Virus record (IMG/VR): IMGVR_UViG_3300024999_000042
Strand: one strand, 5' to 3'
Source: a virus
DNA length: 64,000 nucleotides
Part shown: piece after piece, positions 5,690-64,000 of the stretch
Layout of the letters: each line of letters starts with the position of its first letter
Position numbering within the stretch: the stretch's first letter is position 1
Made by a program: the position numbers and the translations under genes
The notes under the pieces: model-generated
The model's database searches: none
Seen by the model: the letters and a program-made list of their open reading frames with translations, nothing else
Told to the model about the DNA's origin: nothing

Positions 5690-6145
5690 ATGAAAATAAG
5701 AGGTTTTGAATTAGTATCAGATGATTTCAAAAAACAAACCGTTCCTACCATTCTACCACAAAGAGGTACAAAAACTTCAGCAGGTTATGATTTTTCTACA
5801 CCTGTAGATTTAACTATTTTTCCTAAAGAAACTGTATTAGTTTGGACTGATGTAAAAAGTTACATGCAATTTGGAGAAGTTTTAATTCTTGATGTTAGAA
5901 GTTCTATTGGTATTAAGAAAAAAATAATGTTAGGAAACGTTATCGGAGTTGTGGATCAAGACTACTATTCTAATTCAGACAATGATGGAAACATTGGTAT
6001 TTGTTTATATAATTATTCAGACACAACTGTTACTTTGAAAGCAGGAGAACGTATTGCTCAAGGAATTTTCTTACCATTTCTTGAAGCAGATAATGGTAAT
6101 ACGGATAATGAAAGAATTGGTGGAATCGGAAGTACAAACACTTAA
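5690..6145 (+). CDS. dut: trimeric dUTPase
   Basis: SAGYD, RSS, GVVDQDYY, GERIAQG, RIGGIGST motifs. Confidence 0.95.
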   Translation: MKIRGFELVSDDFKKQTVPTILPQRGTKTSAGYDFSTPVDLTIFPKETVLVWTDVKSYMQFGEVLILDVRSSIGIKKKIMLGNVIGVVDQDYYSNSDNDGNIGICLYNYSDTTVTLKAGERIAQGIFLPFLEADNGNTDNERIGGIGSTNT

Positions 6146-6255
6146 ATTTTGTAAATAAATGGGATAAAGTGCTAAATTACATTTTATCCCAACCCTATAA
6201 CCCTACTCCCATAAGGGTTTTAAAATCAGACAATCCGATGAAAGTGAAATTTTAA

Positions 6256-6501
6256 TTGATGAAGGAGATAAATATGAAAAGATTAGAAAAAGCATATTTA
6301 CAATATCCAAACGGAATAGTCTTACCAAAAGGTAGTGGATTAATATCTGATACATACATCACAGATTGTTGCCCATATTTTCTTGATTGTGGCAATGATG
6401 ATTTAGATGAAGATACTAAAATTGGAGAATATGGATATATAAAAGGATGTAGAGGTATTACTTGTGAAAAGTGTTGGGATAAAGAATATATTGAAGCGTA
6501 A
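6256..6501 (+). CDS. Cys-rich protein (CP...CxxCW family)
   Basis: CCPYFL...CRGITCEKCW. Confidence 0.65.
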   Translation: MMKEINMKRLEKAYLQYPNGIVLPKGSGLISDTYITDCCPYFLDCGNDDLDEDTKIGEYGYIKGCRGITCEKCWDKEYIEA

Positions 6502-7660: not shown

Positions 7661-8957
7661 TGAAATATGATTAAGTCTTTTAAAATTAGGTTAGAACCTA
7701 ATAATAAACAAAATTCTCTACTTTTTGGTTGTGCAGGAATAGGAAGATGGACTTATAACTTTGCTATTGCTAAAATACAGGAATATTATAAAGAAACAGG
7801 TAAATTCTTAAATGATGGAGAAATTAGAAAACAACTTACTCAACTAAAGAAAACTGATGAATATAAATGGTTATATAAATATAGTGCGGCTACTATATCT
7901 CAACATGTTAAAGATGCTTGCGATGCTTATAAAAGGTTTTTCAAAGGAATAAGTAAATATCCAAAATTCAAAAGCAAAAAGAAATCAAAACCTAGTTTTT
8001 ATAGTAGATATGATAGAATATCTTTTATATCAACACATGTACGATTAGAGAAAATAGGTAGAATAAAATTATCTGAATACAATAGAATACCAATAGGTAA
8101 AGATATTAAATATATGAATCCAAGAATCACGTTTGACGGATTACATTGGTATTTATCTATTGGAATTGAAATTGAAGATAAAATTAAACCTATTTTAACT
8201 AATGAAAAATTAGGGATAGATCTTGGTGTAAAAGATTTGGCAATTGTAAGCAATGGTAGTAAATATAAAAACATTAATAAGTCCCAAACAATTAAGAAAT
8301 TAGAGAAGAAGTTAAAAAGATTACAACGAAAAGTTTCTAAAAAATATTTAATGAATAAAGATGGTAAAAAATTCATTAAAACAAATAATATTAGGAAACT
8401 TGAAGTTAAAATACGAAAGGTTTATAAAAGACTTAGTAACATTCGTACCGATTATATTCAAAAAGTTTCCACAGAGATTGTGAAATCCAAACCGTCTCAA
8501 ATAATAATGGAGACCTTGAATATAAAAGAAATGATGAAAAATAAATATTTATCTAAAGCAATACAACAGCAAAAATTATATGAATTCAAAACATTATTAA
8601 AATATAAAAGTATAAGGGATGAAATTGAATTCATAGAAGCAAATAGATGGTATCCTTCTTCGAAAACTTGTTCAGAATGTGGTTATAAAAAACCAAAATT
8701 AAGCTTAGGAGAAAGAGAATTTATTTGTGAAAGTTGTGGTTTTATAATAGATAGAGATTTAAATGCGGCGATTAATTTATCGCGATATGAAATAATATAG
8801 GTTTATTTACATAAATTATGCTATATGTACCGTAAGTTGTACGGGAATTAACACCTTTGGACTACTAACAAACATGAGTAGTAGAAATATGAAAGTGAGT
8901 AGGATGAATAAGGAAATAAACATGAAAGTTATACTTTTTATAAGTTTTATACAACGG
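7661..8957 (+). mobile_element. non-autonomous IS607-type (tnpB-only) element; left end and tnpA apparently lost
   Basis: tnpB plus right-end region ending ...TAAGTTTTATACAACGG; host frame resumes right after GG. Confidence 0.75.
7667..8800 (+). CDS. tnpB: TnpB RNA-guided endonuclease
   Basis: N-terminal KIRLEPN HTH; RuvC GIDLG, METL, DRDLNAA; zinc finger SSKTCSECG...CESCG. Confidence 0.93.
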   Translation: MIKSFKIRLEPNNKQNSLLFGCAGIGRWTYNFAIAKIQEYYKETGKFLNDGEIRKQLTQLKKTDEYKWLYKYSAATISQHVKDACDAYKRFFKGISKYPKFKSKKKSKPSFYSRYDRISFISTHVRLEKIGRIKLSEYNRIPIGKDIKYMNPRITFDGLHWYLSIGIEIEDKIKPILTNEKLGIDLGVKDLAIVSNGSKYKNINKSQTIKKLEKKLKRLQRKVSKKYLMNKDGKKFIKTNNIRKLEVKIRKVYKRLSNIRTDYIQKVSTEIVKSKPSQIIMETLNIKEMMKNKYLSKAIQQQKLYEFKTLLKYKSIRDEIEFIEANRWYPSSKTCSECGYKKPKLSLGEREFICESCGFIIDRDLNAAINLSRYEII

Positions 8958-27846: not shown

Positions 27847-28388
27847 TATTAATCATCCTTCTTTCCCTTTAATAAAGATTTTTACAAATGGAATAAGACG
27901 CTCCACTGTTAAAGGCAGTAAGCGTCTTGTTTTACACTCAAAATTATCAAACTCTCATCCAATAATTCATCAGGTATCGATCCCTGAAGTAGTAACCAAA
28001 ATTATTATTTTTATAATTCCAACTCAAACCTCCACAACCCAAAAAAGAGAAGTCCTCTCAGACTTCCCCTACAAACCAAACAATATAAAATTAAATTAAA
28101 TATTCCCAAAACACAAAAATTCCTAACTACTTTAATTGTGGTTAGGAATTTATAATTCTTTCATTATGTAATTATTTCTTTATTATATTTATGTGATAAT
28201 AATTTCTGCAATCATCAAAAGGTAAAAAAATTGAGGAATCCTAAAATTAATTAGAACTCCCTCACAAACAAAAGAAAGAGAGTTGTAAATGAAAATAGAA
28301 AATAATAATAATGAATCATTTACATTTGTATTGTAACATTATTTTTATATTTGTGTCAAGTGTGGTGTTTATTTATTGGTTTATATGT

Positions 28389-28644: not shown

Positions 28645-30654
28645 TTATAAGTTTTCACAAATTATAAAGGGGTATCCTTCACCATCCATTCCAAATTTCT
28701 CTTTAATAACCTTATTTGCTCTGATTCTCTTCAAACCATAAGAATCCAATATTTCCTTCAATGATTTCTTAATTTGGACTTCAGTTGTAATATATAAATA
28801 TTTGTCTCTTAATTTAATCACAATTTCTCTTTCTGTTGCATACCCCTGTTCTTCGATTAATTCAAATATTGCCCTTACAATATTAAGAGTCCTTTCATCA
28901 CTTTTCTTAGTTGTAGTTCTATCAACAACCTGATATGTACCTTCAACAACCTCTGTAACCTTTTTATATTGAGGGTATAATTCATTTGCCATGTCCAATC
29001 CCTCTGCTCTATAAAACATCTCCCTACTAACACCCTTCATAGTGTAATGATTCTCTTTCCATTGTTTTGCTCGTTGCTCGATTTCAGGAAATTTATTTAC
29101 AGTGTATGAAGGAATAGAAAAGAAATTAATGTGATTATTTTTATCTGTATTAATACTTATTGCTTTTGCTCGCTTTAGAAACCTTTCAGGCAAATCAGCA
29201 TCATCGAGTTTATTAAGTAATTTATGATAAGTTAAAACCACTAATTTTTGATATATTTTATTTATAGAGTTAGGACTAATTCCCATTTGTTTAGCAAAAT
29301 AATTAGCACTAGTAAAGAATGCTACATGACCATCTTCGTCTGTTAAGTTTTCATTCCTTACATTATCCATAGCAATCCATATTAATTTCTCAAGATAATG
29401 TTTTATATTTTTGATATTCTTGTTAGCTTGAGGACAATTTTCTTCAAATTCTATATCACCATTTAATACTCTTAAATTTTCATGCAATATTTCTTTTTGT
29501 TCTTTCTGCCAATCTGTTTCCATAATTTCAAGATTGAACATTTCTTTAATAAATTTATAAGTTTTTGGTCTACTTTGGAAATTAGCTAATCTTTCAATAA
29601 CTCCAATAATATTGTAAGTTATACCACAATTACTACTATGGCATTTATAAATCCATGCTCCATCGTCTGCTTGAAATATTCCTGCTGAATTATTATTATC
29701 ATTGTGGAATATACATTTAATAGAACTTGGATAATGGAACTCTAATAATTCTCCTAAATTAATCTCTTTTCTAATATAATCAATAAATTCTTGATTAGTC
29801 TCAAATATCTTTTTATCTCCTGAACCATATTTCTCCTTTAAATACTTAATATTTCTATTGCTTATTGCTTCAATAGTATAAGTATTGGATTCAAGAGGAG
29901 GGGTTTTAGGGGTACTAGATAATATAGGTATTATTATTTTATCATTATTATCTAGTACCCCTTTTCTTGAATTACTATTATTGAGAGTAATAGTTTTATT
30001 ATTAGATTGTTGTTTAATTTCCTTTGCCTCTATGCCCTTACTTATCTCTATAATGTTGTTACTATTTAATATATTACCACTATTAAAAGGCATTGTTTTA
30101 CCAGCATAATAAAATCTATTTAAATTTTTACAAGATGGATCAGATTCGCCCATCATTTCCATAAAATATAAATGTATTCTTTTAGCTGTCTCAAAATCAG
30201 TAATTACCTTATCAAGTATAAATACCAATCTCATTTTATGTTGTTCTTCTTTATGACTAAAAGAGGTATATATAAAATTAGGTATTAAATTAATATCTTT
30301 ACAATGTTTAATAATATCATCATAACTTTTATGTTGTTTACTTCCTACTAGAAATCTTACTTTTGTCTTTTTCCCTTCAACTAATTTTACAGAATCATTT
30401 AGAACAATATCGTCAGTTAAATTTCCTTCATTATCAATATCAATCATAAATACTTGTTGAGATATCCATTCACTTTCTTGCTTACCACAATAGGATGGCC
30501 TAACTGTCTTGCCCTCAAGAATACTAGTTTTTATCTCTTCGATGGAGTATTCTTTCATAATATCAATTGTCATTCTTTTTGTTATGTCCGATGGATCATA
30601 ACCTTTCGGTTTAGTTTGATAACCTACTGTGTCAATTATTAATTTGATTTCCAT
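28645..30654 (-). CDS. primase-like replication protein (AEP/primpol-like N-terminus + CHC2 zinc finger + wHTH-like region)
   Basis: VFMIDID, YTSFSH..KMRLVF, DPSCKN; CIFHND...YKCHSSNC. Confidence 0.7.
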   Translation of the reverse strand: MEIKLIIDTVGYQTKPKGYDPSDITKRMTIDIMKEYSIEEIKTSILEGKTVRPSYCGKQESEWISQQVFMIDIDNEGNLTDDIVLNDSVKLVEGKKTKVRFLVGSKQHKSYDDIIKHCKDINLIPNFIYTSFSHKEEQHKMRLVFILDKVITDFETAKRIHLYFMEMMGESDPSCKNLNRFYYAGKTMPFNSGNILNSNNIIEISKGIEAKEIKQQSNNKTITLNNSNSRKGVLDNNDKIIIPILSSTPKTPPLESNTYTIEAISNRNIKYLKEKYGSGDKKIFETNQEFIDYIRKEINLGELLEFHYPSSIKCIFHNDNNNSAGIFQADDGAWIYKCHSSNCGITYNIIGVIERLANFQSRPKTYKFIKEMFNLEIMETDWQKEQKEILHENLRVLNGDIEFEENCPQANKNIKNIKHYLEKLIWIAMDNVRNENLTDEDGHVAFFTSANYFAKQMGISPNSINKIYQKLVVLTYHKLLNKLDDADLPERFLKRAKAISINTDKNNHINFFSIPSYTVNKFPEIEQRAKQWKENHYTMKGVSREMFYRAEGLDMANELYPQYKKVTEVVEGTYQVVDRTTTKKSDERTLNIVRAIFELIEEQGYATEREIVIKLRDKYLYITTEVQIKKSLKEILDSYGLKRIRANKVIKEKFGMDGEGYPFIICENL
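29908..29962. repeat. 17-bp perfect inverted repeat in the linker of the primase-like gene
   Basis: AGGGGTACTAGATAATA / TATTATCTAGTACCCCT. Confidence 0.85.
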
Positions 30655-30704
30655 TTTTACAACATCTCCTTCAATATTTTATTTGTTTCCTTAATTTTAA
30701 AAAG

Positions 30705-30758
30705 AGCAGACAAAGTGTTAAGGATTACACTCTTTTGGATGGCCTATCCTAGTCTGCT
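30705..30758 (-). ncRNA. three-way-junction/pseudoknot leader RNA (copy C)
   Basis: P1 AGCAGAC/GUCUGCU, P2 GGAU/AUCC, P3 loop UCCUUA complementary to downstream UAAGGA. Confidence 0.6.
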
Positions 30759-30826
30759 GTTGTGTATATTTCAACACAAAAAAGATGCACTCCCAAAAAC
30801 GAAATGCATCAATTTCTATTGAAATA

Positions 30827-30964
30827 TTATTTGTTTTTAAACATTGTGTAAGGATCGCCTTTGTTACCTGTGCCAACCTTAACAGGTAGAATTCCCTTAG
30901 AAAAATAGAATTGTGATTGTTGAGGGTTGTAAATATAAACGAATTCTTTTTCTTTAGTAATCAT
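30827..30964 (-). CDS. small DUF5659-like protein
   Basis: FVYIYNPQQSQFYFSKG; RBS AGGAG. Confidence 0.5.
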   Translation of the reverse strand: MITKEKEFVYIYNPQQSQFYFSKGILPVKVGTGNKGDPYTMFKNK

Positions 30965-31311: not shown

Positions 31312-32478
31312 TTAACTATTAGTACCCGAATCCATTTTAATAAAATATTTTTCCCAATGATCTGTTATCTTTTTAAATCTTTCTTCTTTGTAAAATTCCT
31401 TACCCTGATACCATTTTCTAACAGGCTTATCATTCTTATCTTTATTACAACTTTGGCAAGCTGGAATTATATCATAGATAATATCACTACTATGTTCTTT
31501 AGATTGTGCTATGACATGCTCAGGAATCAAGTGATTATTCTCATCTTCTTCCTTGCCACAATATGCACAACAATTATCAAACTCATTCTTTATTTTCTCA
31601 AACTCAACATCATTTTTGGTATATCCATTTAAATCAATCCAATGTCCTTTATCTGATTTTACGATTCTTCCAATTAAGACTCCATTAACAAATTTCTCAA
31701 CTAAATCAATTCCATATTCTCTTAATATGTATTGCTTAGTATTACCAACAGTTTTAGGGAATTTAACTCCTAACCAATCTTCTAATGCTTTATAGCAATA
31801 CGAATATTGAGATGGTTCTTGATAAATATTAAATTTATATCCAAACTTATGTATTAAATCATTGAACAAATAACTAGGATTTTTATATTGTTTAAATACA
31901 ACAGTCTCCTTTAATTCAGAAATTGTTGCATTTGCATTGTCTAATTTAACTTCTAAATTATTTACTCTATTGTTTAACCAATTCATATTATCAATTAGTT
32001 CAACATTTTGTTGAGTGATGCTTTCTAATTTATTAATATTGATTTCCATAAATGATTGCATCTTTAATTCTATATCTGCATTATTCTCAACATTGAGTAA
32101 ATAAGTTCTAACTTGTTTTGCTATTATACTATCTCTCAAAAGCATACCTAATCTAAGAATACTTCTCCTTGGAAGAATTGTTAAAGATCCTGCTCTTGAC
32201 TCAATTTGACTCTCCGCTTTCAAAGCGGAAAGTTCTTTTCCTTTTAAAACCTTCATTCCGTCATCAGTTAATTCATCTTTATTATGTCTAATATGGCTTT
32301 CTATAGCATCTATATTAACTTCATAATAATTTGCTACATCTTTAACTGTTGTGTGAAGATTATCTGGCAACAAAACTAGTGCTTTTACTTTTTCTAAGAC
32401 ATAATCTTTATCCATATATTGATCTCTCATTGTTTTTGACTCTACCAACATTAACTCATTATTATTATTATTTTCCAT
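31312..32478 (-). CDS. antirepressor-like DNA-binding domain + coiled coil + HNH endonuclease
   Basis: VANYYEV...LRLGMLLRDSIIAKQVRTYLL; CAYCG...EHVI...PACQSCNKDK. Confidence 0.8.
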   Translation of the reverse strand: MENNNNNELMLVESKTMRDQYMDKDYVLEKVKALVLLPDNLHTTVKDVANYYEVNIDAIESHIRHNKDELTDDGMKVLKGKELSALKAESQIESRAGSLTILPRRSILRLGMLLRDSIIAKQVRTYLLNVENNADIELKMQSFMEININKLESITQQNVELIDNMNWLNNRVNNLEVKLDNANATISELKETVVFKQYKNPSYLFNDLIHKFGYKFNIYQEPSQYSYCYKALEDWLGVKFPKTVGNTKQYILREYGIDLVEKFVNGVLIGRIVKSDKGHWIDLNGYTKNDVEFEKIKNEFDNCCAYCGKEEDENNHLIPEHVIAQSKEHSSDIIYDIIPACQSCNKDKNDKPVRKWYQGKEFYKEERFKKITDHWEKYFIKMDSGTNS

Positions 32479-33854: not shown

Positions 33855-34298
33855 TTACATAGAAATTTTAATTCCGTATTTATTAGCTAAATATCCCGCT
33901 ATACAAGCTCCTAAAATAGCTAATACTTTAATAATTATATCTTTTTTATTATTATCTTTTGTTTTTATTACTTCTGTATTTTTTGCATTTTCTGATTTTG
34001 TAATCTCAGTGTCTTTAATGTCTTTTGATTTAATTATCTCTGTATTATTATTACTGGTGTTAAGTACGAGTTGTGTCATTAAATTGGTCATCGAACTGGT
34101 GGTTTGCAAATAATTATTTTCGAAACGTACTAATGTGCCTTTGATATCCTTAACCTGTTCTTCTAGTCCAAACATTTTTTCTTTTGTAGTAGCTGTGTCA
34201 ATTTCTAACTTAATAATCCTGCAACCGTGGTCGTCTAATATTTCCTTGACTTCATTATCATCCAAACTCACATCTAACACCTCTTTCGTAATTAACAT
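33855..34298 (-). CDS. XhlA/holin-associated coiled-coil protein with C-terminal TM
   Basis: LDDHGCRIIKLE; C-terminal TM; lysis cassette position. Confidence 0.6.
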   Translation of the reverse strand: MLITKEVLDVSLDDNEVKEILDDHGCRIIKLEIDTATTKEKMFGLEEQVKDIKGTLVRFENNYLQTTSSMTNLMTQLVLNTSNNNTEIIKSKDIKDTEITKSENAKNTEVIKTKDNNKKDIIIKVLAILGACIAGYLANKYGIKISM

Positions 34299-34425
34299 TT
34301 GACTTTGCCCCTTTCTTATGATATATTGTTTATAGGTTGCATCTCTAGTACAGATGTATCCCTAGACAAGTTACAGAAATTGGGCAATTTTTCTGTACTT
34401 GTCATACATATGACAACTAAGTAAA

Positions 34426-34529
34426 TAAAATTAATAATTTCACTAAAGTTTAAACATTTACTAAAATTAATAATTTCACTAAAGTTTAAACATTTACTAA
34501 AATTTAATAATTTTACTAAATGTTTAAAT
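34426..34529. repeat. 36-bp tandem repeat (2 perfect + 1 degenerate copy)
   Basis: TAAAATTAATAATTTCACTAAAGTTTAAACATTTAC at 34426 and 34462. Confidence 0.9.
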
Positions 34530-34613: not shown

Positions 34614-35279
34614 TTAAGCAAGTTCTAATCTTTTGGTAGCATATCCCAATTTTATAATATCCTTAATTAATTGATCTGCTTTTGAATCTAACACCCTCAC
34701 TGATAAATATACATCTTTATCTACTTTTGTTGTTGCATCTGCCACTTTATAAACAACTCCCTTATTATTTTTCAACTCAATAATCTTTGCATCAATGGCA
34801 TCACATAATTGTTTCCATGTTTTCCCCATTCTCGTTAAATAACCATAAGGATCTGTATGGTCGATCCCCTTGTATAATGATCTTAATCCATTATGTGACC
34901 AAACATTATCATCAACATTCCAATTGTGTTTAATACATAAATCAGCAACAAACCAAACTGTTTTATTCCATACAATTTCAAATTGAGCTTTATCTGCTGT
35001 TTCACACATTTCTATTCCTAACCACTCTCTATTACCTTGCCAATTACCTGTATGCCATGCCATTTCATTTTCAGGAATAAATTGATATATTTCTTCTCCA
35101 ATCCAATCTGCAATAAAGTGGACAGATGATTGTCTATCTGCGTTGTTCCAATAATTATAATGATTTAGAGAATTTGCTTCAATATTTGCTGTGCTGTGGA
35201 TTACGATTCCTTTAAGATTAATAAATTTTTCTTTTGGTCTATTCATTGATATTAATTGTTGTTTAATATAATATAACAT
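34614..35279 (-). CDS. endolysin, N-acetylmuramoyl-L-alanine amidase (Amidase_2)
   Basis: IVIHST, SSVHF, AWHTG, GIEMCE, SH...HTDP; start MLYY after AAGGTG. Confidence 0.9.
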   Translation of the reverse strand: MLYYIKQQLISMNRPKEKFINLKGIVIHSTANIEANSLNHYNYWNNADRQSSVHFIADWIGEEIYQFIPENEMAWHTGNWQGNREWLGIEMCETADKAQFEIVWNKTVWFVADLCIKHNWNVDDNVWSHNGLRSLYKGIDHTDPYGYLTRMGKTWKQLCDAIDAKIIELKNNKGVVYKVADATTKVDKDVYLSVRVLDSKADQLIKDIIKLGYATKRLELA

Positions 35280-35375
35280 AATTATTTTCACCTTCCTTAA
35301 TAATAAACATTTTTTAAAAGAGATTATTATAAAAACCATCCTCCAATATAAATCCACTATTTCTAGGATGTTATT

Positions 35376-41598: not shown

Positions 41599-42819
41599 TT
41601 AAACAACCTCCGTTTCTGTATAAAATTTATTTCCAGTTTTTAAATAATAAAACTCCTGAAAATCTTCAGGAGTAAAATTAGCACTACCATAAATACTATG
41701 AAACTCTTCATGTAATTCTTTTGTTAAACAAACACCTAAACCATATTTTGATTGTAATTCCAGAAACGTTGCTGTAATTAATTCCAAAGTATTTTCATCA
41801 TAATCATTCAAATCATCGTAAAAGGTAATATAATTTAATAATTCTATAGTTTCTTCGACAATTTTATGGAATGGATATAAATGGTGTATATTATCAAATT
41901 TTTTACCAGTTATTACACATTCATAATTACAAACTGTCATAGATTCATTTTTCCATTCTATCATTTTACATGTTCTTATATATCGTTTTAATGATTGATT
42001 GCCTTTCCAATTAGGATGATTCTTACCAGTCCAAGAACGAAGAATATCATCATGTATACACCCACAACTTTTTGTATTACCACTAATTAAAGCAGAAGTT
42101 GGTAAGGTTAATTTATTACCACAAATACATTGACAATCCCATGATACACAATCACGAATCCTTTCTTTAGAAAACCCCAAAACTGTCAATCTTCCATATT
42201 GATTACCTGTAATATCATTATAATTATTGTGGAGATATTCACTTCTATAGCAACCACAAGAGATAGTATTTCCAGATGTTAATGCTTGAGAAGTAACATA
42301 TGTAGGCGGTGTACCACAATCACAAACACACTCCCATAGTGGTTTCGTATATGCCGTACCAATTCTTTTAATAACCGTTAATCTACCAAACCTTTGATTA
42401 GTTAAATCTTCAATTAAAGGTGAAGGTATTCCTCTTTTAGCTAATCCTGCATTAGTCATAGGGCATTCTCTACAAGTAATATCTGGTTTACTCAATAAAA
42501 CATTAGAACTAGTTTCATAATCATTTCCACAATCACATCTAACTTTCCAGAAAGAAGATTTTTGCTTCTTTTCTTTTTCTTTATCTTTTGATCGTTCTAA
42601 GACAATAAGAGTTCCATATTTATCACCAATTTTTATATCATGTTTATCATGACACGATGATAAAGTTTTTCCATTTAAAAAATTTCCAATATACTTATTT
42701 TTCTCTTTGCCACAAGTACAAACACAAACCCATAATGATTTCCCTATATACTCTTTTACCGTCCATGCACCAAAAACTTGACCAGTATAATCAATATTAG
42801 GAATACCTTTCTTAGACAT
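41599..42819 (-). CDS. HNH homing endonuclease with repeated GxxFGRLTV...CxCxCG modules
   Basis: Four Cys modules; CVITG..IHHL...GVCL..H..FH..YG; start MSKK after GGAGTG. Confidence 0.8.
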   Translation of the reverse strand: MSKKGIPNIDYTGQVFGAWTVKEYIGKSLWVCVCTCGKEKNKYIGNFLNGKTLSSCHDKHDIKIGDKYGTLIVLERSKDKEKEKKQKSSFWKVRCDCGNDYETSSNVLLSKPDITCRECPMTNAGLAKRGIPSPLIEDLTNQRFGRLTVIKRIGTAYTKPLWECVCDCGTPPTYVTSQALTSGNTISCGCYRSEYLHNNYNDITGNQYGRLTVLGFSKERIRDCVSWDCQCICGNKLTLPTSALISGNTKSCGCIHDDILRSWTGKNHPNWKGNQSLKRYIRTCKMIEWKNESMTVCNYECVITGKKFDNIHHLYPFHKIVEETIELLNYITFYDDLNDYDENTLELITATFLELQSKYGLGVCLTKELHEEFHSIYGSANFTPEDFQEFYYLKTGNKFYTETEVV

Positions 42820-42870
42820 ATAATCAATCACACTCCTTAAATTACACTCAACCAACTAAAAATATAAAAA

Positions 42871-42935
42871 GACAAGCAGAAAATTCTCTATGAGTGTTCA
42901 ATAGAGAAGTCAGGTGTACATCCTGTCTACTTGTC
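42871..42935 (-). ncRNA. three-way-junction/pseudoknot leader RNA (copy A)
   Basis: P1 10 bp, P2 CAGG/CCUG, P3 8 bp with loop ACACUC pairing to UGAGUGU and SD GGAGUGU. Confidence 0.65.
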
Positions 42936-42966
42936 AAAATCATTAATATTAAATTACTACCACTTG

Positions 42967-60786: not shown

Positions 60787-63549
60787 TTAATTTAATTTTG
60801 ATAATACGTCAATTAATTTATTTTTTACACCTTCACAATTGTTCTTCAAGTCATATGGATATAAGTCTATAAAAATAATATCATCTCTAGATTTATAATA
60901 ATTATTTTTCAACACTATTTTATCTTGGTAATTTTTAAACATAGTTAACTCACCTTGATAATTTTTTAAATATAAACCATAATACTCAATAATTATTGGT
61001 TTTACTAATTCAATATCTTTATAATTATCAATGACAAAATCGGGACATATTTTATTTATACCATTATATTTATATGTATATTTTCCTGAATGATTAGAGC
61101 CAATAGCACAAATACCATCAATATTTAAGTCTCTTTTGATTGATTCGTACACCATTATTTCTTGTTTACTATCACATTTTACCCCATCATACGCTAGACA
61201 TAACCCAAAATCTTCTGGAGTCCACTCCTTGCTATATTCAGGATATGATAAACACGCCCATTCATAAAATGACGTAAATTTTCTTAATCGTGTGCCACTA
61301 TTTTGTAAATAGGCACAAAATTTAGGATATAATTCATTCATAAAAGTAAAATTTAAATATGTTGGTAAATCATCCTTTATGTCAAAGACCAAATCATTCA
61401 TTCTATAAATCACAAATTCCCTTAAAAATCTAGAAAGATCATGTACAGAAGTTTTATTATTTCTACTCAACTCCCATTCGAAAAGTAAATTATTATCTTT
61501 TATTATAGAGTATGCCTCGACAAGTAAATCATATGTATCAATTTTAAATGTTGCAAAAGTATATAGTTCTTTTAACTTTTGCTTAGAAAAATATTTCAAT
61601 ACCCAATCTTGAACATTTTTCCATGAATCTAAACAATTTAATATATTATCTTTACATTGATTCTCACAATAATGCCTAATTGCTCTAATTCTATTGTCTT
61701 TACTTTCCCAAAATCCATCAGTTTTATTTGTAAAATCTAAATCTATAATAGGGGTTTTAGTATCGGGATGTACGATATTTTTTATTTGAAACAGCCATAT
61801 AAGTAAATCCATATGAGCCATATTGAATTTTCTATACTTATTTTGCCATAAATTCATCATATCCCTATTAAATAGTCCAGTTATTCCGTAACTAGTTAGG
61901 ATTTGTTTTACACTTATATTCTCACTTTTCACCCAATCATCAAAAATTTTCATTGCAGTATCATTATCATATTTATCAATGTCATCATCTGAAATATTAA
62001 ATTCAGGAAAACATGCTTGCAATGTTTCTAAAACAGTACCAAATCTTTGTGTAATTTGAATTTTATATTGATTTAAATTAGGGCAATTTACATTATTGCA
62101 TATTTCATCTTTTGTTTTACAGTCCATCTTTTCAAAAACAATATACCTTACTATCTGAATAAAATTTTCTTGTATATGACAATGCTTTGGCATTTGTGTA
62201 ATTTCACCATCATAAAAGTATTTCCACCACCTTTCAAGAGGTATGTCCGTTATCTCTTTATATATTATTCCTTTCTCTTTATACAAGTCTCTGTTCTCCC
62301 GTTTTTGCATACATTCTAAACATATGTTTTTTAAGTAAAACAAACTATAAACATTACCTTTAGGGAAAAATTCGTTTGTAAAATCTTTTGTTTCTCCACA
62401 TTCTAAACATTTATTCAATACAATGATATTTGATTCTTTTATATCCTCATTAAAAATCTTGGAAAATAATTTTTCTGAATCTCTATTAAATACTATAATA
62501 CATAAACCGTCTAAATTATAATCGCATAATAATTGGTTAAAATTATGGTCTATCAAATCGCTTCCATTAATAATATTTTTATCTAGTTTTAATTTATATT
62601 TCAACCACTCTAAAGCATCATTTATATTATTTTCATTTTTCCAGAAAGCAGAAGGAAAGTTAACATGTTTCTTAAATTCCCAAAGTTTAATATTGTACTC
62701 AGAATATATTTCTATGATTAATTGTTTTGATTCTTTAATTTTAATAATTGAATCAAGTTTATATTCTTCTAAAATATTATTGTCAAATTGGTTACATATA
62801 TCTTGGTATCCCCAATTAAGAATAGAATCAAACAAATGCTTTAATACAATATATTTGTATTGTTTATGTTTAGAAAATCCATTTGGAAATGACTTCAATT
62901 TTCCATTTAATACTAAATTAAAAATATGTATTACTTCAAACTCAGATAAACTATTAATTACAATGCTACTCGTTATATTGTATTTATCTGCCCAGTATGT
63001 AATAGTTTTTGTATGTTTACTGTATAATAAAGAGGCCCCTTTTCTCCCTAATATTCTGTAATTTGTAATAAATTCATCTATATTATCAATCCAATCAGGA
63101 GTGTCTTTTGGTTTATGACTCCATGAATTATTTTTTCTATTATGATCTGTCGAACATTTTACAGAGCAAAATCTTAATCCATCTTCTAAAAACTTATAAA
63201 GTTTTTGCTCAATATCTCCTCCGCAATTATCACATTGTCGTATAACTTTCAATGGTATACTACCAAGTTTAAGTTTTTCACTCAATAATATTACAACATC
63301 TTTTAAAGTTTTATTTGGTAACATTGGTACAATTTCATTAACATGTTGTACTCTTCTATTTAATAAAGAATCAATTATAATTCTATACTCTTCTATTTTC
63401 CAAACGTCATTCTCTTCTAATTTATTATTCTGAATCACCATACATACCTTACATGTTGTTCTGTAGTATCCTCCACCTCTTGAATGATACTCACCAACTG
63501 GTTTCTCTTTACCACAAACCTTACAAACTTTTGTCTCAACATTACTCAT
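60787..63549 (-). CDS. large homing-endonuclease-like protein (Zn ribbons, DUF4046-like repeats, C-terminal PD-(D/E)XK)
   Basis: CKVCGKEK, FCSVKC, FP..FW repeats, DSKQE...PDFV...IIIEYYG. Confidence 0.7.
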   Translation of the reverse strand: MSNVETKVCKVCGKEKPVGEYHSRGGGYYRTTCKVCMVIQNNKLEENDVWKIEEYRIIIDSLLNRRVQHVNEIVPMLPNKTLKDVVILLSEKLKLGSIPLKVIRQCDNCGGDIEQKLYKFLEDGLRFCSVKCSTDHNRKNNSWSHKPKDTPDWIDNIDEFITNYRILGRKGASLLYSKHTKTITYWADKYNITSSIVINSLSEFEVIHIFNLVLNGKLKSFPNGFSKHKQYKYIVLKHLFDSILNWGYQDICNQFDNNILEEYKLDSIIKIKESKQLIIEIYSEYNIKLWEFKKHVNFPSAFWKNENNINDALEWLKYKLKLDKNIINGSDLIDHNFNQLLCDYNLDGLCIIVFNRDSEKLFSKIFNEDIKESNIIVLNKCLECGETKDFTNEFFPKGNVYSLFYLKNICLECMQKRENRDLYKEKGIIYKEITDIPLERWWKYFYDGEITQMPKHCHIQENFIQIVRYIVFEKMDCKTKDEICNNVNCPNLNQYKIQITQRFGTVLETLQACFPEFNISDDDIDKYDNDTAMKIFDDWVKSENISVKQILTSYGITGLFNRDMMNLWQNKYRKFNMAHMDLLIWLFQIKNIVHPDTKTPIIDLDFTNKTDGFWESKDNRIRAIRHYCENQCKDNILNCLDSWKNVQDWVLKYFSKQKLKELYTFATFKIDTYDLLVEAYSIIKDNNLLFEWELSRNNKTSVHDLSRFLREFVIYRMNDLVFDIKDDLPTYLNFTFMNELYPKFCAYLQNSGTRLRKFTSFYEWACLSYPEYSKEWTPEDFGLCLAYDGVKCDSKQEIMVYESIKRDLNIDGICAIGSNHSGKYTYKYNGINKICPDFVIDNYKDIELVKPIIIEYYGLYLKNYQGELTMFKNYQDKIVLKNNYYKSRDDIIFIDLYPYDLKNNCEGVKNKLIDVLSKLN

Positions 63550-63620
63550 ACTCAACACTCCTTAAAATTTTATATTTCTAACCATACCAACCACACACTC
63601 CAAACCAAAACATTATAAAA

Positions 63621-63682
63621 AGGCAACAAAAAGAAGGGAAGGAGTGTATTCCCTTCTACAGTCAGCTAAACTGATGTTGCTT
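63621..63682 (-). ncRNA. three-way-junction/pseudoknot leader RNA (copy B)
   Basis: P1 GCAACA/UGUUGC, P2 UCAG/CUGA, P3 9 bp with loop ACACUCC pairing to two downstream GGAGUGU. Confidence 0.65.
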
Positions 63683-64000
63683 ATTTAATAGCAAACCAAA
63701 GCGTCCAATGATTTGCTAAAACTATCACATTAAATTAAAACCATAAATTACACAAATAAAAAAGACACATATTTCTATGAGTCCTTTAAAAATTAACCTT
63801 CTTATAAATTATAAAATAAAAAACACTATTGTCTTGAAAATCCAGACATATGAGATTTAGGCAATTGATTAATCAATTCAGTATAAGCCTGACTAATCGA
63901 TTCAAACATATCATAATTATATGCTAATGCCATATCAATCACAAAACAATCTGTTATTTTTCCTAAATACCACTCTTCACATAATTCATCTTTAGAAATC

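Follow-up and report, generated by a model that had tools for sequence, protein, structure and literature searches.

Ahead of an HNH homing-endonuclease-like gene on a phage-like stretch of DNA lies a branched RNA leader whose apical loop is complementary to the Shine-Dalgarno (SD) sequence of that same gene. The locus raises the question of whether such a leader is an ordinary terminator, a DNA-level element that mobilises the gene behind it, or an RNA that pairs with the SD and governs translation, and, in the last case, whether the pairing turns the gene off or on. We approached it by comparing the leader with other copies in the window, by which we mean the whole 64-kb stretch of DNA that was analysed, and in related contigs.

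Results

The window and its likely host

The window has a G+C content of 29.6% and is phage-like, with tail-type genes, a 3017-aa open reading frame and several nuclease genes; the genes beyond ~27 kb are encoded on the minus strand. No close relatives were found in INPHARED, where the sole match, at 66%, was to an endonuclease of Geobacillus virus E3, and the 64 kb contain no tRNA or tmRNA. The host is probably a member of the Clostridia, since the best cellular match of the primase-like protein encoded in the window is from Paratissierella segnis (45% identity) and the next are from other Clostridia.

Several spacers carry features of their own. A scan of the whole window against Rfam at gathering thresholds returned a single match, a RAGATH-18 RNA (RF03064; 52.7 bits against a gathering score of 44.9) at 8854-8915 on the plus strand, in the spacer between a 377-aa gene (7667-8800) and the next plus-strand gene. 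At ~34400-34520 on the minus strand, two ~50-nt tandem repeats form long hairpins when the intergenic region is folded; they sit within the 315-nt spacer between the genes at 33855-34298 and 34614-35357. G/U-rich words of the GGGUU/GAGGUU type, conspicuous against the 30% G+C background, stand beside plain terminators at 28001-28045, 6141-6256, 1838-1967 and 107-189, and GGUUGG words that resemble them are also present in the spacers after leaders A and B.

Three leaders with a common fold and layout

The first-pass annotation of this DNA had described three clear copies of a three-way junction, here called A, B and C. RNAfold predicted a three-way junction at all three of these minus-strand sites (z -3.0 to -4.7), and 0 of 200 shuffled sequences for each site folded as well. 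P1 measures 6-10 bp, P2 4-5 bp and P3 7-9 bp, a U tract follows, and the junctions persist when the entire intergenic region is folded. In each leader the P3 loop is complementary to two purine tracts in the stretch that separates the U tract from the start codon, with loop-tract duplex energies of -5 to -13 kcal/mol. P1 is followed by tract 1 at a distance of 10-26 nt; the other tract, tract 2, ends 8-12 nt before the start codon and is the SD sequence of the cargo gene. That the partner tract occurs twice, the second time at the SD, had also been claimed and agrees with our reading: GAGTGT is present on the minus strand at 42830, 42844, 63555 and 63595, and the two tracts of C are placed likewise (Table 1). 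The leader module covers ~145 nt, with a P3 loop address of 5-9 nt.

Leaders A and B use the same SD. The exact 9-mer AAGGAGTGT has three occurrences in the 64 kb, as the SDs of genes A and B and as the complement of the P3 loop of B. Paralogy of the two cargo genes was considered as the source of this shared SD and was ruled out, because the proteins are unrelated.

A further, variant copy had been placed at 27893-27987, and here the earlier description failed. The region folds as three separate hairpins without a three-way junction, and the loop of only one of them (27895-27928) has a downstream complement. A mechanical scan of the whole window found no further clean intergenic junction followed by a U tract.

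Table 1. Positions of the leaders, their cargo genes and neighbouring features in the window and in related contigs, with the loop and tract codes of the copies
Feature	Position	Strand	Details
Leader A three-way junction	42871-42935	-	P1 10 bp, P2 4 bp, P3 8 bp; RNAfold -24.4 kcal/mol, z -4.7
A P3 apical loop carrying ACACUCA	42890-42901	-	
A U tract directly after P1	42858-42870	-	read from the sequence
A tract 1 UGAGUGU, 7-nt loop complement	42844-42850	-	
A tract 2, SD AAGGAGUGU	42830-42838	-	start codon 42817-42819
Cargo A, HNH homing-endonuclease-like gene, 406 aa	41599-42819	-	phrog_374 HNH endonuclease, E 5e-52
Insertion of ~1.24 kb, leader A and most of the HNH ORF	41707-42948 (approximate)	-	from alignments with L001
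Leader B three-way junction	63623-63680	-	RNAfold -21.5 kcal/mol, z -3.5
B P3 loop	63641-63648	-	
B tract 1 GGAGUGU	63595-63601	-	
B tract 2, SD AAGGAGUGU	63555-63563	-	start codon 63547-63549
Cargo B, 920-aa protein	60787-63549	-	N-terminal endonuclease/HNH/EndoVII-like zinc module and DUF4046
Leader C three-way junction	30705-30758	-	RNAfold -18.0 kcal/mol, z -3.0
C P3 loop AAUCCUUA	30719-30726	-	
C tract 1 UUAAGGA	30688-30694	-	begins 11 nt after P1
C tract 2, SD GAAGGAG	30666-30672	-	start codon 30652-30654
Cargo C, primase-like protein, 669 aa	28645-30654	-	phrog_25531 (function unknown)
Plain hairpin terminator upstream of C	30784-30810	-	
Conserved small hairpin, 18-mer, upstream of C	30760-30777	-	
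Single hairpin of the annotated variant, loop CCUUUAA	27895-27928	-	one 7-nt complement near the next SD
Copy A2	L139:17647-17711		
Copy B2, homolog of B	L140:17833-17890		
Copy C140	L140:8889-8939		P2 not predicted
Copy D	L143:8602-8661		
Copy E	L140:5701-5756		
Cargo-less C-type leader	L093:12623-12769		ATG-TGA
Cargo-less C-type leader	L118:3404-3550		ATG-TGA
Cargo-less C-type leader	L095:9423-9549		5-codon ORF, then ~350 nt non-coding
Code of C in the window			loop UCCUUA; tract 1 UUAAGGA; tract 2 (SD zone) AAGGA
Code of the L085 group			loop ACUCGC; tract 1 GCGAGU; tract 2 (SD zone) GCGAG
Code of the L095/L113 group			loop CUCUC; tract 1 GAGAG(UA); tract 2 (SD zone) AGAGAG
Code of L138			loop UGCCUUU; tract 1 AAAGGCA; tract 2 (SD zone) AAAGGC
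Code of L140 (C140)			loop GCCUUA; tract 1 UAAGGC; tract 2 (SD zone) AAGGC
Code of D			loop UCCUCAA; tract 1 UUGAGG; tract 2 (SD zone) UUGAGGA
Common code of A, A2, B and B2			loop ACACUC(C); tracts (G)GAGUGU

Loop and tracts change together among relatives

Relatives were retrieved with the 18-nt hairpin upstream of C as a probe, which gave ~20 homologous loci from IMG/VR and JGI metagenomes, and whole related contigs were also searched for further copies. Eight were found in related viral and metagenome contigs; all fold as junctions and bring the total to 11. These relatives were all drawn from a small number of related metagenomes, so that their alleles represent a single phage population. 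A full descriptor of the leader matched nothing but true copies in ~460 kb of relatives (both strands counted), and a descriptor scan of ~860 kb for leaders before ~80 distant HNH homologs from IMG/VR returned only the known copies and AT-rich chance matches. A single-sequence covariance model of copy C recovers only C140 and E; A, B and D thus repeat the design of C without detectable sequence homology. Since MAFFT alignments of the junctions were not column-consistent for P2 and P3, coordinate-based tests were used instead.

The first-pass annotation had remarked that loop and partner change together, and the enlarged set bears this out. At least seven loop codes are present across the 11 copies, and in each case both tracts match their own loop and not those of the others, so that a matrix of self and cross comparisons between loops and UTRs is block-diagonal; several tracts are SD-like, and part of each match is therefore generic anti-SD/SD likeness, which inflates the matches somewhat and accounts for some off-diagonal 5-mer matches. 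In a position-aware test, each loop had to find two complements of at least 5 nt, the first within the SD zone and the second further upstream. Compared with shuffled UTRs, this two-site complementarity had p values of 0.0002-0.035 in all copies but E, whose complement at tract 1 is limited to 5 nt and whose SD match contains a wobble. Fisher's combination over seven codes, with E counted as a failure, gave p ~1e-9. The match is usually longer at tract 1 (6-7 nt) than at the SD (5-6 nt).

Individual substitutions point the same way. Between the L085 and L095 groups the loop changes from CUCGC to CUCUC and both tracts from GCGAG to GAGAG, in leaders whose P1 and P2 are otherwise identical; this is an exact compensatory swap of one interaction base pair (G-C to U-A), altered at all three sites. 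In B2, an A-to-G change in the loop still pairs with the unchanged GGAGUGU tracts, as G.U, and therefore fits RNA of the sense strand. A strand test by the number of G.U pairs had too few of them (17/222) to discriminate. The helices are conserved or covary as well. P1 of the C family has double substitutions at 3/7 pairs among four C-type copies, a U.G pair in P1 of A becomes C-G in A2, with the same change given for a near-identical copy in G001, and a U.G pair in P2 of B becomes U-A in B2. The comparison demonstrates that pairing of the loop with both tracts, in the RNA of the sense strand, is under selection.

How much of this would be expected of ordinary branched intrinsic terminators, in which the loop-tract matches are functionless and reflect SD-like composition? 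P1 with its U tract is terminator-like. Leaders A, B, C and D are canonical by the usual criterion of a stable helix followed directly by a U tract, and a U-rich tract follows P1 on the sense strand in all copies, with the U run displaced, weak or interrupted in the C085, C113, C138 and C140 alleles. The loops are mostly CCU- or CUC-rich and the tracts GGA- or GAG-rich, so 5-nt cross matches do occur, and the other terminators of the window are plain hairpins in comparable positions. Composition, however, does not account for the block-diagonal matrix at the p value given above, for the CUCGC/GCGAG pair, which is not SD-like, or for its three-site swap to CUCUC/GAGAG. The tract positions are also fixed, and the consensus of the Rfam family int-alpA, discussed below, conserves the same loop and post-terminator tract. 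We find the plain-terminator explanation barely credible.

The leader is a module that changes cargo

At the A site, the relative L001 has an upstream gene whose protein is 97% identical to that of the window, and it has neither the junction nor the HNH gene; the ~1.24 kb at A are therefore an insertion. HNH-less relatives carry a plain hairpin terminator in the intergenic spacer (L001 ~1040-1062), and in the window the native plain terminator hairpin (41652-41673, minus strand) now lies within the last codons of the inserted HNH ORF. Similar short words (TGGTAGT..TAAT) stand on both sides of the A insertion.

The contig of L001 has a near-identical A-type leader elsewhere, before an unrelated DUF7487/phrog_12131 homing endonuclease gene, and A and A2 are homologous over a segment that begins ~24 nt before P1 and ends at the start codon. 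B and B2 likewise sit before unrelated proteins. C-type leaders precede the primase-like gene, whose product falls closest to ESM-Atlas clusters with Zn_ribbon_DnaG, RepB_primase or Prim-Pol (a lead only), a GIY-YIG/NUMOD SegE-like gene (L140:8996-10069), or no gene. Copy E is followed by an HNH_repeat protein and copy D by a 112-aa protein without assignment. In the three orphan C-type leaders the junction, both tracts and the ATG are intact, and the recombination breakpoints fall exactly at the start codon. The same leader types thus front unrelated cargo (HNH, DUF7487, HNH_repeat, GIY-YIG or primase-like) or none, which shows, together with the indel at A, that the leader is an independent module moving as a unit, mostly with selfish nuclease genes, much as had been proposed when the leaders were first noticed. 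A 388-aa protein with an ORF6N-like N-terminus and an HNH domain is encoded at 31312-32478 on the minus strand without a junction leader upstream.

The 9-mer TAATTTAAT is found at 42948-42956 and 63729-63737 on the minus strand and also in L085, L138 and L140. In the A, B, C-family and E leaders it precedes P1 by 21-83 nt, and it forms the 5′ end of the A/A2 homology. As a promoter it is unconvincing because it is a common AT-rich word; 7 of its 12 occurrences in the window are inside genes.

Exchange of cargo behind a conserved structured element is familiar from cassette systems, and the leaders might accordingly act as DNA, with the inverted copy in the loop and the two direct copies serving either as protein-binding sites, as in autorepression by an endonuclease, or as attC-like single-stranded recombination or priming sites that mobilise the cassettes. 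I-TevI, for one, acts on an operator similar to its homing site and thereby represses its own promoter (PMC2988022). Such a DNA-level role is nonetheless very unlikely. One code is common to unrelated nucleases, the HNH protein of A and the DUF7487 protein of A2, as it is to the unrelated cargo of B and B2, and the primase-like cargo family has four codes, the opposite of what protein-specific operators would give. The sites are only 5-9 bp long, and no integrase or recombinase is adjacent. The loop change in B2, which is G.U in RNA, would be a C.A mismatch on the other strand and an altered protein site. Covariation, a code shared by unrelated nucleases and the B2 change argue against the DNA-level and the plain-terminator readings alike.

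One copy matches int-alpA

Comparison with Rfam, which the first-pass annotation had suggested, gave a divided answer. Copy C matches int-alpA (RF02996) above its gathering score (37.8 bits against 35.8; E 6e-7), with model positions 1-71 aligned to 30689-30759. The match was missed in the 64-kb gathering scan and emerged when 200 nt (30630-30830) were scanned with laxer filters. A and B, in contrast, match no family at E<=10, and the weak miRNA, snoRNA and sRNA matches were noise. The other C alleles and the relatives' contigs gave nothing over the cutoff for RF02996, nor did the family turn up above it in four Clostridia genomes, in 151 genomes of the putative host order or in E. coli CFT073; the sole match in these genome and contig searches, at 19 bits, lies inside an ABC-transporter gene. 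Around the copies we found no match to C4 (RF01695) at its gathering score or at E<=10, and none to the ribozyme families (hammerhead, twister and others) at E<=10.

Int-alpA is a candidate sRNA of unknown function (Weinberg et al. 2017, PMC5737381). The main text of that paper does not discuss it, and the mentions of int-alpA that we found in the literature include none that is mechanistic. The family name implies a place between integrase and alpA genes, but neither int nor alpA lies near C, whose neighbours are the primase-like gene, the HNH/ORF6N gene and small ORFs.

Discussion

With modest confidence, and on the evidence of folding and comparison, we favour a model in which the leader, as a leaky terminator or as an sRNA, occludes the SD of the cargo gene and so provides a programmable off-switch on swappable cassettes, in a group of AT-rich phages that probably infect Clostridia. 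The P1 closing helix and the U-rich tract would form a leaky intrinsic terminator that stops most transcription into the cassette. On RNA that reads through, the P3 loop would pair with the SD, block 30S binding and leave the cargo poorly translated. The earlier suggestion of a terminator-pseudoknot is close to this model, in that a terminator-like P1 and U tract are joined with an anti-SD loop. Transcripts that end at the U tract would yield a stable junction RNA of 55-65 nt, which could repress read-through mRNAs in trans; cargo output would then be set by the ratio of read-through to terminated RNA, as with P4 CI and P1 c4. Tract 1 may take up the loop of the mRNA itself, as a decoy in cis or as an entry site, and distinct codes would limit cross-talk among the leaders of one genome and of co-infecting relatives. 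The direction and timing of cargo-gene control are what we infer here.

The layout presents this model with a difficulty. The loop in cis should sit on tract 1 and not on the SD, because tract 1 lies closest to it and in most cases offers the longer match; and since capture of the cis loop by the nearer tract would in itself leave the SD unoccupied, repression would need an excess of RNA acting in trans or an exchange between the two sites. The same pairings could also work with the opposite sign, with a pseudoknot between the loop and tract 1, or the short terminated RNA in trans, remodelling the read-through leader and so freeing the SD or stabilising the mRNA. IsrK of the Gifsy-1 prophage offers a precedent, for its terminated short isoform activates its own read-through isoform from the same promoter (PMC4825925). 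Activation is unlikely here, however. The loop covaries no less strictly with tract 2, the SD itself, than with tract 1, and direct pairing with the SD is hard to read except as occlusion. Moreover, the spacer is A/U-rich and the SD already unpaired in the MFE folds, so activation would have nothing to open.

Returning to occlusion of the SD, a more specific version is possible, and we put it forward tentatively. The junction RNAs may be trans-acting, dosage-sensing repressors with interchangeable 5-9-nt addresses, and the codes may be alleles of heteroimmunity or incompatibility. Excess terminated junction RNA from each cassette would titrate the SD of its own read-through mRNA, and tract 1 would cancel the cis loop, so that expression would turn on only when read-through outruns termination. 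The presence of many codes at one locus could then reflect heteroimmunity among co-infecting phages or phage-plasmids. Such RNAs would represent the Gram-positive equivalent of P1/P7 c4 and P4 CI, would provide the first mechanism for the orphan int-alpA family, and would constitute a natural set of orthogonal translational repressors.

If occlusion in its general form is correct, int-alpA gains a concrete mechanism, in which the apical loop pairs with a decoy site and with the SD, and the homing-endonuclease cassettes of Gram-positive-type phages carry a portable RNA brake. A single scaffold that bears at least seven loop/SD codes, all orthogonal to one another, would amount to a natural series of compensatory mutations and could serve as a regulator toolkit.

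The closest structural relative is int-alpA itself. Its consensus consists of an 8-bp P1, a UA junction, a 4-bp P2 with a 5-nt loop, an A-rich junction, a P3 loop with CCUU, the returning strand P1′, a U tract and, ~10 nt after P1, AAGG. Like the leaders, it is a three-way junction whose closing helix, P1, resembles a terminator and has a U tract behind it. The CCUU loop and AAGG are found literally in copy C, and the other copies substitute other mutually complementary words. Since the consensus carries both CCUU and AAGG, the motif as described already has the pair of loop and tract 1. Its structure line, however, contains no pseudoknot, and loop and AAGG are not annotated as paired. The loop of the leaders is hypervariable and covaries with two tracts, the second of which is the SD, and the leaders belong to an AT-rich phage of Clostridia type, where they front genes for homing endonucleases and a primase-like protein. 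They appear to be a new, cassette-borne and hypervariable variant of the int-alpA-type junction RNA, with a logic like that of c4 and CI.

The functional parallel is with the immunity RNAs of P4 and P1. The CI RNA of P4 comes from the leader of the operon that it controls, pairs with the sites seqA and seqC, and holds the replication genes in the off state (PMC4825925), and c4 of P1 is required for full repression of ant (PMC8198154). In these systems, as in ours, an RNA from the leader of the same strand exposes a sequence complementary to two sites in its own transcript. Two complementary targets and allele-specific covariation are thus features of C4 RNAs and of the leaders, as an analogy of function only. 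Citron and Schuster, in 1990, reportedly found that one c4 target overlaps the icd ribosome-binding site, and that the heteroimmunity of P1 and P7 arises from covarying changes in loop and target. The leader RNA is, in contrast, predicted to end at its own intrinsic terminator instead of being excised by RNase P, its two targets are both downstream, the hosts are of Gram-positive type, and the cargo consists mainly of homing endonucleases.

IsrK activates translation by restructuring its leader, whereas the leaders described here are complementary to the SD itself. In that respect they are nearer to the homing endonuclease genes of the T4 type (I-TevI/II/III, segB, mobE), which are damped by terminators and by RNA that sequesters the SD (PMC2988022). 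Both cases join selfish nuclease genes with terminators and, in the leaders by prediction, with sequestration of the SD on read-through transcripts. The SD of the T4 genes is part of a local hairpin, from which a late promoter inside that hairpin frees it. In the leaders, a remote loop on a three-way junction would pair with the SD and with a second site, many codes are in use, and the leader moves between cargo genes. If our interpretation is right, the leaders extend the SD hairpins of T4 and the same-strand antisense RNAs of P1 and P4 to a new structural solution.
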